A stretch of 64,000 nt of DNA from Somniosus microcephalus. Taxonomy: Eukaryota. The notes beneath the pieces were generated by a model that was not told the DNA's origin, made no database searches, and saw nothing but the letters and a program-made list of their open reading frames with translations. The translations under genes were made by a program, and so were the position numbers. The DNA lies in the NCBI GenBank assembly GCA_052327205.1, contig CM126234.1, forward strand, positions 31,248,001-31,312,000. The letters are read 5' to 3'. Below, in pieces: positions 12,601 through 21,600 of this stretch (positions are counted from its first letter, which is position 1; each line of letters opens with the position of its first letter).

Positions 12601-15600
12601 AATGTGATACTCGTCTGGAGAAAGTGTGAGGAACACCACTTTATGGTAGTTACCAGAACCATGTTTAACAGGCAGCCATGCTAAGGTGGAGAAAAAAAAG
12701 TGTAAACTTGTACAGGGTTAAAGCTTTAGTGCACAAGTTTTATTTTAAAAAAAAGGTGCAACATTGACATTTTGATCTATTTCTACAAAGCCATAAGCAA
12801 CAAACCTCAAAACCCAATGATGTGTGGTAAAAAGCACCTTTGTGACATTACAGAAACATTTTACCTTCAATCTTTTGTAGACAAGGAGGAAAAAAAAATC
12901 TGGATATCACAATGCTGTCTACTGGTTAAGCTTTCACACCATGCAATAAAAGCTTTCAAGGTTAGCGTGAACGCTCTTGGTACCAGACAACACGCCAACT
13001 TATACCAGTGGTTTCAAAGCTCCGTAGTCGTGCCTGCAATGCTCATCCTGTGTGCAGAAAATAGGCAAACGCAAAATTGCACGACAATCTGGGTTTTTAA
13101 ATATAAGCAAACTCTGAAGGACAGCTCAGAAGTTTGCCACGGTTCAGGCATGAAGTGCACACAACAGTCCTCGTTAGAATTTTTTTTTTTATAGAATAAA
13201 GAACCAGAGTACTGCAAATAGTCACAGGCTGAGGTACGCAGGCCAGTTTTAGCACGTGAGGCAAGATGTTAATACAGATTAGTGTACTACTAACCTATTC
13301 AAAACCAGTTCACTCGAGTGTTAAGTCCCCACTACATGTGAAAAAGTGAAGAAACAAAAGTGGACTCCACACTGCCATTAGTACACAAGCTCTAAACACC
13401 TCGTGAACACAGTTGAAATTTGTACATTATGTCTATTGACCTGTTCCAAAAGAGACAGCAATTCCTCAATGAAGGTAGACTACCAAACACAACTGATGCA
13501 TTTGATAAATTCGAAGAGGACGTGCAATATTTGGTAATTACACCTCATCTTTCTTCCTTCCCCCATATTACAAATTAAATGATTAATGCTCAGTAGCTTT
13601 TTCAAGAAATTATTCTGGGCTATATACTTTACATAAAGTACAGATTTCAAACCACACAACTTTCCTTTGCTGAAGGACAGGCTAACTTTAAGCTGCCCTA
13701 TTCATTCTGGAGGGCATGACAAGTGTATTCCAATAGAACACACTCCGCCACAGAGTCCGAGTGCTTCACTTAAAAGTTAGCCTTTCCTAAATGTGAACTT
13801 TAATAGGACAGGCCTTTACTTCCCAAGTTTAACAGGTGCACAGTTCAACTAGGCAGGACACGACTACATGCACACCTCAACCAAGCTAAATACCCGCATC
13901 ATTCTGCTTCACCACAGGCTCCTTTCCAGTTGGAGCAGTCTTGGGAATGGCCTTCTCAATAACAGGTGGGGCAGGAGCTTCGCAGAGGGGCGTCTCGTCG
14001 ACAGCAGAGATCAAAGGCGGCATCTCATCATCGTCATCTATGTGGGCAGCTGAAGATGATTCGGGGGATGGGGCAGTGAGTTGAACAGAGGCAGGTGGAA
14101 GAGTGAGAGATGATGGAAACTCAGTGACAGGTGCTCTAGATTCTGAAGATAAAGAAAGTTTGGTGGATGAAGGCGGTTCACGCGGTGAATGGTCAGCAAC
14201 AGGCAGAGAGGGAGGCAGCTTGGTAGCAGCATGCAGGGGAGGCTGAAGCTGGGCATTAACAGTAGGGTCAAGAGACAGAAGCAAGTCAGTACACGGAGCA
14301 ACTTGGTCAGATGAAGCTAGCTGAATGACCAGGGGGAGTAGCTTTGAAGCAGGCAGGTCATAAGATGGAAGCAGTTGAACAGGTGGGGCTACAGTCAGTG
14401 TCTGCTCAATAGCAGACATGGGTGGCTCATCAGCACAGAGTGCCTCAGGATGCACAGAAAAGTCAGCACCAACTACAGGGCGAGTGGACAAATGCGGCTC
14501 ATCTGCTGCAGCGATGGCTGAATTCGGATCAGTAGCACACATAGGGACAGCAACCGGCAGCTCAGTTGCCAGAGACATAACTAGAGGGTCAGCCAACAAG
14601 TCATACACTGCAATGACCAGATTAGCTGACAATGGCAGGTCAGTGGTATCAATGGGGGCAATTGGAAGGCACTCTGCTGAAAGCAGCCCATCAGTGGCGC
14701 TGGCAGCAACGGGATCGGTGGAGACGGGTACAGCAGCTGGGACATCAACCACAGTTTGAGCTAAAGACAGCCTGGAGGGAGCAACTGTGTCAGTAGGCAA
14801 GGACAGGATGGCAGGTACGGGGAGACCATCAACACATGATGGCTGCTTGTCCAGGGTGAATGGAAATAAAGGGTCAGCAGACAAAGTCAACTGATCAACT
14901 ACAGCAGCAGCCGTAACAAATGAATGTACATCAGTAGTGTCCGTAATAGAGTCAAATGAAGATAGTCCGTCAGATGCAGCTTCTGCGGCATCAGCGGGCA
15001 AAGGCAGCTGCTCTGCGGCATCAGCGGGCAAAGGCAGCTGCTCTGCGGCATCAGCGGGCAAAGGCAGCTGCTCTGCGGCATCAGCGGGCAAAGGCAGCTG
15101 CTCTGCGGCATCAGCGGGCAAAGGCAGCTGCTCTGCGGCATCAGCGGGCAAAGGCAGCTGCTCTGCGGCATCAGCGGGCAAAGGCAGCTGCGCTGCGGCA
15201 TCAGCGGGCAAAGGCAGCTGCGCTGCGGCATCAGCGGGCAAAGGCAGCTGCGCTGCGGCATCAGCGGGCAAAGGCAGCTGCGCTGCGGCATCAGCGGGCA
15301 AAGGCAGCTGCGCTGCGGCATCAGCGGGCAAAGGCAGCTGCGCTGCGGCATCAGCGGGCAAAGGCAGCTGCGCTGCGGCATCAGCGGGCAAAGGCAGCTG
15401 CGCTGCGGCATCAGCGGGCAAAGGCAGCTGCGCTGCGGCATCAGCGGGCAAAGGCAGCTGCGCTGCGGCATCAGCGGGCAAAGGCAGCTGAGCTGCGGCA
15501 TCAGCGGGCAAAGGCAGCTGAGCTGCGGCATCAGCGGGCAAAGGCAGCTGAGCTGCGGCATCAGCGGGCAAAGGCAGCTGAGCTGCGGCATCAGCGGGCA

Positions 15601-18600: not shown

Positions 18601-21600
18601 AAGGAGGCTGATCAGTGGCATCAGCGGGCAAAGGAGGCCGATCAGTGGCATCAGCACCATCAGCGGGCAAAGGAGGCCGATCAGTGGCATCAGCAGGCAA
18701 AGGAGGCTGATCAGCACCATCAGCGGGCAAAGGAGGCTTATCTGTGGCATCAGCACCATCAGCGGGCAAAGGCACTATGGCAGCAGTGATGTCAGGTAAA
18801 GACAGCCCATCAGGAGCAGCAATAGCATCACTGGGCAGTGGTGCAGTGGCAGTAGTTTCAGCAATGGCATCAGCCAAAAGCTCAACATCCATGCCAGAGG
18901 CAACTAGAGGATCAGTGGATGAAGGCAGTTGAAGGGCAGTGGTGGCAATAATACTGTCACACGGAGAAAGTCCAGAGTTGGTAGTAACTGAGTCAGCAGA
19001 TAAAGGGAGCTCGTCAATAAGGTCAGCAAAAGCAGGGTCAGCAGTTGTAGGCAGCTGATTAACGATAGCGGCATCAATGGAGTTAGTAGACAAAGGCACG
19101 TCAGAAGTAACAACAGGGTCAAATGAAGATGGATCAGCAGTAGTATTAACAGGCAACGGCATGGCAGTAATAGCAATACCGTCAGGTGAAGACAGTCCTC
19201 CTTGGGTGGCAACTGGTTCAGCCAAAGGCTGCCCATCATTGGTGGAGGAGACAAGACGTTCAGTGAGTGAACACACCTCATCGACAGCAACTGCAGCAGC
19301 AGAGGGCACGACAGTACGGTCACAGGAAAGTAGACCATCAGGGGCAACATCAGTATCCTTCGCAGACCCAGGCAAAACAGCAGTTGCCTCCAGATCAGTC
19401 AAATGCTGATTTGAGTCAGTGGGCATGGACAGCTGATCAATGGTGGGGCCATCAACTGCATCAGCTGGTGAAGTTCCACTAGTGGCAGCAGTGCAGGCAG
19501 GCAAAGGGATAGCATTGGCAGCAGCAATATGGTCAGATGGGGACAGTCTCAAGTCAGAACCTACTTCAGTGTTCAAAGAAACAGTTAGATCAGATGGCGG
19601 CAAACCAGAGCGGGCAGCTACTGAGTCAGTGGACAAAGTCAACTGATCAACAGTGGCAGCAGCAACTGGGTCAGCAGACAAATGCGTAACGGAATTAGCT
19701 ATCAGGTCAGATGAAGGCAGCCCATCATCAGCTTCAGTATGGTCAGCAGATAAAGGTGGCTGATCAGTGGTAGGGCCAGTGGGTGAAGGTGGCACCTCAG
19801 CAGAAATGATAGGGATGGGAGAAGATAGAGAGAGCTCTAAAGGAGGCTGGACAAGAGATAGCACAGAAACAGACAGTAGGGATGGAGAAGGATTGTCGAT
19901 GGTGGCTTGGGAGGATGGAAACTGAAGATCAGGGCCATGCAAATCAGTAGCAGCCGAAAGCTCCATCTTATTGGCACTGCTGGATTCATGTTCAGCCTGT
20001 ATGTGCTCACTGGCTGAAGAAACCGATTCATGCTCAGAACAGGTTTCAATTGTAGCTGTTGAAGATAACCAAAAAACCATCAATAGGAGTACGAAGAGCA
20101 TCAGTGTTGTCACTAGGATTTCAGTATAAAGTATGGTGAAATTTTCAGAAAATGAACTTAACTACAAAAAAAAAAATGCTGTGTTGCATCGAGTCTACAG
20201 CACAAACAGGCCATTCGGCCCAACTGGTCTATGCTGTCATTTATGCTCAACACACAAGCCTCCTCCCACCCTTCTTCATCTCACCCAATCAGCAGATCTT
20301 CTCCCCCTCAGGCACTTCTCCAGCTTAGTCTTATTCGCCTCAACCACTCCCTGTGATAGCGAGTTCCACATTCTCACCACTCTCTGGGGAAAGAACTTTC
20401 TCCCGAATTCCCCATTGGATTTATTAGTGACCATCTTGTATTTACAGCCTCTGGTTTTGGCCTCCCCACCAGTGGAAACATTTTCTCCACGTCGATCCTA
20501 TCAAACAGCATCATAATTTTAAAGACCTCGATCAGGTCACCCCTCTCCTTTCTAAAGAGAGTCCCAGCCTGGTCAGTCTTTCCTGATAGTTAGAACTTCA
20601 GTTCTGGCATCATCCTTGTGCACCCTCTCCAATGACTAAATCCCTTTTATAATATGGAAACCAGATCTGTGCACGGTACTCCAAGTGGGGTCTAACCAAG
20701 GTTCTGTACAAGTTTAACATAACTTCTCTGCTTTTCAATTCTATCCCCTAGAAATGAACCCCAGTGCTTGGTTTGCTTTTTTATTTTTAAAACCTGCGCC
20801 ATTACTTTTAGCGATTTCTGTATCTGTACTCCTAGATGCCTTGGCTCCTCTATCCCATTTAGACTCTTATCTAAGCAGTCAGTATGTGGCTCTATTCTTC
20901 CAAATGCACCACCTCACTTACCTATATTGAAATTCATTTTTACACACCCATTCTGCAAGTTTAATATCTTCTTGTAATCATCCTTGGTATTCACTACATC
21001 CCCCAATTTGGTGTGGTCTGCAAATTTTGAAATTGTACTTGCGCAATTAGATTTTACCCCCCCCCCCCCCCAAAAACTTGGCCGAGTACCAAATGTTTTG
21101 ATTTGATAACCGATTATGGTAGAGACTGAGGCCAGCATAAGTAACCCCACTATTTAAGAAAGGAGGGAGAGAAAACGGGGAACTACAGACCAGTTAGCCC
21201 GACATCAGTAGTAGAGAAAATGCTGGAATCTATTAAGGACGTGGCAACAGGGCACTTAGAAAATAATAGGATTGGGCAGAGTCAATGCGGATTTATGAAA
21301 GGGAAATCATGTTTGACGAATCTGTTGAGTTTTTTTTTTTTTTTTGAGTTTGCAACTAGCAGAATAGATAAGGGGGAACCAGTGGATGTGGTGTATTTGG
21401 ATTTTCAGAAGGTATTCGATAAGGTGCCACACAAGAGGTTATTAAACAAAATTAGGGCACATGGGATTGGGGGTAATATACTAGCATGGATTGAGGATTG
21501 GTTAACGGACAGAAAACAGAGTAGGAATAAATGGGTCATTTTCAGGTTGGCAGGCTGTAACTAGTGGGGTACCGCAAGGATCAGTGCTTGGGCCTCAGCT

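Follow-up and report, generated by a model that had tools for sequence, protein, structure and literature searches.

What does a 6-kb coding exon contribute to NACA when 3.8 kb of it is minisatellite, and which of its parts are conserved? We addressed this question in a window of 64,000 nucleotides (nt) from the shark Somniosus microcephalus (GenBank assembly GCA_052327205.1, contig CM126234.1, positions 31,248,001 to 31,312,000 of the forward strand), in which a preliminary description made from the sequence alone had placed a giant exon of the type that encodes mammalian skNAC. We consider it probable that this exon is a composite. It would consist of a 45-nt head, then 5.9 kb of acidic filler, in frame and likely removable by splicing, and finally a short conserved tail, a likely docking site for SMYD1. 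Its parts, in window coordinates, are as follows.

13894..20055, minus strand: giant skNAC-type exon, 6,162 nt, 2,053 stop-free codons, acidic
20011..20055, minus strand: 45-nt mini-exon (head) at the 5' end of the giant exon, with a predicted internal phase-1 donor, CCA/GTGAGC, at 20011; carried by 19 of 23 short ortholog isoforms, where it is joined to the tail
14143..20010, minus strand: predicted exitron, GT...AG, in frame, 5,868 nt (a multiple of three), or 5,961 nt with the acceptor at 14049; its removal is suggested by ortholog models
15004..18772, minus strand: minisatellite; of its 122 units, 109 measure 30 nt, 10 measure 39 nt and 3 measure 36 nt, and 71 are identical; duplicated higher-order blocks, and runs of variants at the 3' end
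13894..14142, minus strand: conserved tail; 249 nt long if splicing resumes at the predicted acceptor 14142, 156 nt long if at 14049
14006..14038, minus strand: acidic tract and PPLIS, corresponding to the SMYD1-docking acidic-PPLIP motif of mammals, but with a fifth-position Ser
13940..13942, minus strand: Lys of a Pro-Lys pair, 24 residues past the Leu of the motif and equivalent in position to mouse K1975 (L1952 + 23)

The exon is an elasmobranch skNAC-type exon, orthologous to the NACA exon that specifies skNAC, and as such it is already known, being present in the NCBI annotation of related species. On the minus strand it runs from 20055 to 13894 with AG and GT at its ends, phase 1 on both sides and, on translation, zero stops over 2,053 codons. 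Within NACA, exon 2 lies upstream of it and the GSGTESD exon downstream, and its reading frame is that of the NAC domain. Coordinates, splice ends, frame and gene context given in the preliminary description were all reproduced, and its placement of a skNAC-type exon at this position is confirmed by gene context, phase and the conserved tail. The remaining coding exons of the gene are these.

30961..31030, minus strand: first coding exon of NACA (exon 2; MPGEATET...QAET), with a phase-1 donor; 23/23 amino acids (aa) identical to white-shark protein P0002
28525..28704, minus strand: cassette exon A, 180 nt, phase 1/1, with a tandem (NAGNAG-type) acceptor; 85% by tblastn to P0002 aa 24-82, and splice context
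23968..24066, minus strand: cassette exon B, 99 nt, phase 1/1; 89% by tblastn to P0002 aa 83-118, and splice sites
12524-12439, 10571-10494, 9735-9589, 8854-8726, 7029-6907 and 6672-6658, minus strand: constitutive NACA exons with the NAC and UBA domains, found by tblastn; Pfam NAC and UBA_HYPK in the ortholog

Joined together, the seven constitutive coding exons encode 215 aa, of which the final 192 equal those of P0002 at 192/192 positions, and the NACA exon that we tested has one match in the genome (6.45-Gb assembly, four candidates scored). Within the giant exon, the non-repeat flanks of 425 and 363 codons stayed open in 0 of 2,000 shuffles each, and every other frame there holds 7-57 stops. 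Openness of the array means little because two other frames, one on each strand, are also stop-free across it, and we rejected the open frame within the array as coding evidence for this reason. These alternative frames (14902-18774, minus; 14966-18796, plus) run for ~1,280 codons each and are most likely a by-product of a stop-free 30-mer. The encoded protein is, as first described, rich in Asp, Ala and Pro and nearly free of Lys (A 25.8, P 17.2, L 15.9, D 11.5 and K 0.5%), with a net charge of -249. GC content is 50-68% in the giant exon versus ~42% in the non-coding flanks. Pfam gave zero matches within the giant exon and Rfam zero within the window.

Ortholog models suggest that most of this exon is optional. 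Cassette exons A and B, overlooked in the preliminary description, lie in the same intron as the giant exon, and exon B is carried by 9/9 N-complete long ortholog models and 23/23 short ones. The isoform of ~2270 aa proposed at the outset holds as arithmetic, in that joining exon 2 to the giant exon yields 2,269 aa, but the direct 30961>20055 junction occurs in none of the ortholog models, where exon B intervenes; exon B with the whole giant exon gives a predicted 2,302 aa. Using the tail as query among proteins shorter than 663 aa, we found 23 elasmobranch NACA short models of 299-413 aa, read 14 of them in full and classed all 23 by pattern. They resume at a site matching window position 14142 (16/23) or 14049 (7/23). 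In the window the internal donor and both acceptors are intact and in frame, and they bound a canonical GT-AG segment inside a coding exon that is a multiple of three at either length and stop-free. The predicted short forms are 346, 315, 331 and 300 aa, the first two being the lengths of the relatives' P0122 and P0137. Filler-free forms are computed models in relatives, among which the white shark has both long and short types, and they make it likely that 5.9 kb of the giant exon is filler that can be spliced out. Primates offer a parallel: three short isoforms (846-925 aa) are without an internal block of ~700-1,040 aa compared with the long isoforms of related primates. Skate and stingray models (3/23 short isoforms) have a second internal donor, and window positions 19960-19985 hold no GT at the matching place.

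The end of the exon is conserved. Mean identity to ten relatives is 0.79-0.81 over the final 90 aa versus 0.25-0.68 elsewhere in the flanks, and the acidic-PPLI motif is kept, which bears out the earlier statement that a C-terminal stub is retained; the 3' flank is matched by ten elasmobranch NACA long isoforms at 52-68% identity. We compared the insert across vertebrates in 121 rows, consisting of the best 120 of 653 proteins of 663-2,113 aa plus the window exon (P0112, without the GSGTES anchor, was dropped; several isoforms per species are among the rows). An acidic tract followed by [LM]PPLI stands 36-50 residues before the exon end in 14/14 elasmobranch, 12/12 amphibian, 8/8 snake and 69/70 mammal rows, with a shuffle rate of at most 0.6%. 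Ray-finned fish have the motif in 12/16 rows, 41-446 residues from the exon end. Pro-Lys follows the Leu at +22 to +24 in 103/103 motif-bearing elasmobranch, amphibian, snake and mammal rows (14, 12, 8 and 69) and in one of two basal ray-finned rows tested. A hidden Markov model (HMM) of the 55-aa tail returned only two matches at 15 bits or more, and homology to bony vertebrates therefore rests on motif plus spacing, not on profile scores. The long isoforms of spiny-rayed fish (P0055, P0087-P0089, P0101-P0104, P0116, P0118 and P0121) end in another conserved word, KLTFAEAV, and their PPLI motif, where present, lies hundreds of residues upstream.

Published work on SMYD1 gives this tail a probable function. 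In the mouse, SMYD1 binding requires L1952 of PXLXP, and methylation falls on K1975 (PMC10340688). The SMRT peptide SNPPPLISSA, with a PPLIS core, binds the ETO-type MYND domain and, weakly, that of DEAF-1, and the MYND domain of SMYD1 is positively charged (PMC3555993) and would therefore fit the acidic tract of the tail. Co-folding the shark SMYD1 MYND exon with the tail peptide scored 0.35 against 0.02 for the best control, a weak result, with runs agreeing in at least 81% of contacts and a partner pLDDT (predicted local distance difference test) of at least 57. The benchmark mark was reached by 51/78 solved and 2/108 mismatched pairs; passes at 0.60 or below comprised 5/78 solved pairs and all four passing mismatches, and a pass at this level is wrong more often than right unless the pair was likely beforehand. 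It may also reflect memory, because a similar MYND-peptide complex has already been solved. With motif and spacing in view, we consider it likely that the conserved tail docks SMYD1.

We also monitored transcription of the locus by mapping four sequencing runs on 18850-29200, a stretch that ends short of the array, the 3' end of the giant exon and exon 2. Run X20 consists of raw stranded RNA, and its species label is that of the best DNA match. Over 18850-19887 its depth was 17.2, 16.4 and 30.4x, versus 0-1.7x in non-repeat intron bins, and the first mate was always on the plus strand, as expected for minus-strand RNA in most stranded libraries. At exon B, bin depths of 30.2 and 11 correspond to a derived ~140x over 99 nt; exon A had almost zero reads. 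Run X19 showed 0-1x on the 5' part of the giant exon and ~0 at exon B. The 5' part of the giant exon is transcribed in one of the two RNA runs, and we call this transcription sample-restricted, not muscle-specific. Contigs of X16 and X1, which may or may not derive from RNA, support the acceptor at 20055: both sets break off at precisely that position, with a 30-nt overhang. In the intron just before the giant exon, window 20250-22650 holds a reverse-transcriptase fragment (21506-22141, plus strand) and other high-copy repeats, which attract thousands of off-target reads.

How much of this exon is constrained in length or charge? The preliminary description held that its size is retained, in effect a spacer of ~2,000 residues selected for length and refilled independently with a repeat of opposite charge. 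Taken by itself, the 2,053 aa found here does resemble the mammal rows, which reach 1,896 aa (within a ceiling of 2,113 aa on whole proteins); repeats differ from lineage to lineage, and HMMs of the elasmobranch N- and C-flanks matched 0/106 non-elasmobranch inserts at E<0.01. However, across ten other elasmobranch species the equivalent region spans 661-1,541 aa (three of the ten from internally starting models), the fish, amphibian and snake rows range from 470 to 1,835 aa, and most of the giant exon is flanked by internal splice sites used in relatives' annotated isoforms. In an ortholog search over proteins of 1,129-3,593 aa, the longest match was 1,733 aa; the giant exon of this species is the longest found, and its near match to the mammalian 6 kb is a product of array growth along this lineage. 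Per 100 aa of insert, net charge is -10.3 to -15.2 in elasmobranchs (14 rows), -6.0 to -10.1 in amphibians (12), -1.5 to -2.8 in snakes (8), -1.6 to +4.2 in mammals (70) and -20.3 to +6.4 in ray-finned fish (16). The supposed reversal of charge in the shark was thus probably polarised wrongly; an acidic insert is common to all elasmobranchs and amphibians examined, with the basic mammalian filler as the outlier. From these lengths and charges we conclude that length is labile and acidity widespread. An independent origin of the filler repeat stands in part, as the shark repeat has no similarity to the mammalian TPPSPK type, but a PL[PA][AT][DE] core is shared by the units of white shark, catsharks, sawfish and this species, which are otherwise lineage-specific. 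Barring collapse of the relatives' arrays in their assemblies, selection for length is on this evidence largely refuted, and we regard it as very improbable.

The array itself, 3,769 nt from 18772 to 15004, agrees with the ~3.8 kb first reported. Unit lengths were said to be 30 or 39 nt only; three 36-nt units occur too, and all are multiples of 3, leaving the frame intact. Degenerate echoes of the repeat number 6 versus 0.7 expected in one flank and 4 versus 0.5 in the other, for a pattern chosen after viewing the sequence. The array is an ordinary in-frame minisatellite expansion, less surprising than the preliminary description supposed. Its extreme length could be an artefact of assembly or belong to a single allele at a hypervariable minisatellite, the typical protein of the species being shorter, as the 71 identical 30-mers and a length known from a single assembly would allow. 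That explanation seems to us decidedly unlikely, given ordered variant runs and duplicated higher-order blocks resembling normal minisatellite turnover and no N within the window, and it would alter length alone, not the identity of the exon. Another view grants importance to the short filler-free isoforms only and takes the 2,300-aa form for tolerated intron retention of a drifting minisatellite. Sequence divergence in the flank is in keeping with drift: the X1 contig, from organism A, differs from the window at 45 positions, of which the 37 listed comprise 11 synonymous and 26 non-synonymous changes, giving a ratio of non-synonymous to synonymous differences (pN/pS) of 0.88 on these 37/45, with a net length change of +12 nt. 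The long form also reaches ~12-22% of exon-B depth in X20, a rough figure that 3' bias would make an underestimate, and 4/11 species lack an N-complete long model among those found. Set against this are 788 non-repeat codons that are open in the window, N-complete long models in 7/11 species including both sharks and rays, an X20 depth 10-30 times that of neighbouring non-repeat introns, the raised GC content and a mouse skNAC that is a full 2,187-aa protein (bioRxiv 2025.10.23.684272). We judge it unlikely that the long form is mere retention.

Several observations nevertheless weigh against our composite reading of head, filler and tail. The long models of the four species concerned (two Scyliorhinus, Leucoraja and Cetorhinus) start inside the filler, and the long form may therefore be dispensable. 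Ortholog isoforms are computed NCBI models, and retention of PPLI in 23/23 short ones is partly by construction, because the tail served as query and tail-skipping forms could not be returned. On the RNA side, read mapping covered the giant exon only from its 5' end to 18850, none of the junction rows listed for 18850-29200, a list dominated by intronic repeats, joins exon B to 20055 or spans the exitron, and NACA expression in X19 is an assumption, as the mapped stretch held no constitutive exon. The giant exon contains PPLIS and no strict PxLxP, which makes the shark tail a likely variant dock rather than a PxLxP member; the fifth-position Ser is found in 11/14 elasmobranch rows, with Pro in sawfish, Mobula and Hemitrygon. 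Most ray-finned fish rows have the motif far from the exon end or absent, and SMYD1 binding also requires residues beyond the MYND domain (PMC3555993). Disorder of the filler is likely from its composition, the array being without aromatic residues. Regarding the catshark models, window 19966 is an internal Met (KMELSAAT) in a strong Kozak-like context, AATAAGATGG, and in the two Scyliorhinus species each of the five long models begins at the matching Met, which may point to a break or an alternative start in catsharks.

Under the composite reading, muscle splicing factors of the RBM24/RBFOX type would include exon B and the giant exon, or its tail, in NACA. Use of the internal donor and acceptors would give isoforms of 300-346 aa, and keeping the filler would give ~2,300 aa. 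As long and short forms both keep the NAC domain, either would sit on ribosomes together with NAC-beta and expose the tail to SMYD1; the tail would dock SMYD1 and bear the methylated lysine, and nascent sarcomere proteins would be linked to the SMYD1 system in the manner described for skNAC of the mouse. The filler would probably be a disordered spacer selected for frame, not for sequence or length, that grows and shrinks by minisatellite turnover. Just past the giant-exon donor we noted a possible splicing element, which we rate as a candidate muscle inclusion enhancer.

13867..13876, minus strand: candidate splicing element GGTGTGCATG, intron +18 to +27

It combines an RBFOX-type TGCATG with an overlapping GU-rich word of RBM24/SUP-12 type, and has a ~1.5% chance of occurring near a donor at window frequency. 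A site for RBFOX with SUP-12/RBM24 has a precedent in PMC5558909, with the two words in the opposite order to GGTGTGCATG.

A second alpha-NAC paralog, which we take to be NACAD-like, lends itself to a broader interpretation. An open frame of 3,136 codons in this paralog contains a predicted phase-1/1 exon of 9,123 nt at G000:C7:69164070-69173192 (splice sites assigned by eye); the exon is acidic throughout at ~-13 per 100 aa and located upstream of a GSCNESDSDD exon, the counterpart of the GSGTESD exon of NACA. The paralog exon has no PPLI motif, no tandem array and no blastp similarity to the NACA insert. It is in keeping with an acidic giant exon that arose before the paralogs separated; convergence would be the other explanation for giant exons in both paralogs. 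We tentatively propose, while holding it less probable than not, that jawed-vertebrate skNAC is a two-state device, with a fixed SMYD1 dock and methyl-lysine tail on ribosome-bound NAC and a splice-toggled spacer of 0-2,000 residues that is free to change in sequence, length and charge, the acidic giant exon predating the alpha-NAC paralog split and the basic mammalian filler being derived.

Mammalian skNAC, the nearest known system, is encoded in the mouse by an exon 3 of ~6 kb; the mouse form requires Rbm24 and Rbm20 and is found with ribosomes at Z-disks (bioRxiv 2025.10.23.684272). NACA exon 3 of mammals shares with the shark exon its gene, intron position, phase 1/1 and Pro-rich low-complexity insert, along with the acidic-PP-L-I motif and a Pro-Lys 23-24 residues on, near the exon end; short primate isoforms likewise omit an internal block. 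In contrast, its filler is slightly basic and of TPPSPK type, whereas that of the shark is acidic (-12 per 100 aa, 0.5% Lys); PPLIP replaces PPLIS, the shark has two extra upstream cassette exons, and the predicted splice-out removes ~95% of the exon in the shark versus about half in primates. NCBI elasmobranch NACA isoforms (XP_041036149.1 and XP_041036155.1; some named 'muscle-specific form') are direct orthologs with the same exons A and B, head, tail and junctions, but with a giant exon shorter than the 2,053-aa copy here. Exitrons as described in PMC4484396 share a GT-AG segment within a coding exon, 3n and stop-free, whose removal deletes a low-complexity region, and the shark segment differs in being 5.9 kb and mostly minisatellite. 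Because its outer 5' piece is only 45 nt and skippable, the predicted exitron can equally be described as an alternative-3'-splice-site event. Long internal repeat exons that change length through repeat indels in low-complexity sequence are a general published pattern (PMC12457776), and NACA has 0 occurrences in the main text of that paper.

The comparison matters because the giant insert makes up 90% of the mammalian protein. It singles out some 50 residues at the exon end as the probable conserved working part in sharks, amphibians, snakes and mammals, including the dock-to-lysine spacing. The short shark isoforms are also natural material for rescue tests; delivery of full-length skNAC with AAV9 (adeno-associated virus 9) is reported to have been impossible (bioRxiv 2025.10.23.684272). 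If the two-state proposal were true, the 300-346-aa shark isoforms would be a natural 'mini-skNAC' and a direct test of whether the giant filler does anything. Our additions here are the anatomy of the predicted exitron, a Leu-to-Lys spacing that is conserved, and the matching exon in the paralog, for none of which we found a paper by title or abstract start in a literature collection without most subscription journals.

The window contains further features upstream of the NACA coding exons. At ~32820 a GCA/GTAAGT donor in a CpG-rich stretch is likely the end of a non-coding first NACA exon. In mammals, PRIM1 lies upstream of NACA, and upstream of the shark gene we found exons (57177-63931, minus strand, with a weak match at 50252-50353) matching the non-NACA part of three fish fusion models with PF01896, the DNA primase small subunit. 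A GC-rich block at 52516-55142 holds a DDE_Tnp_4 transposase frame (54045-55142, minus strand) and neighbouring frames without Pfam matches, and is likely a Harbinger-type element.

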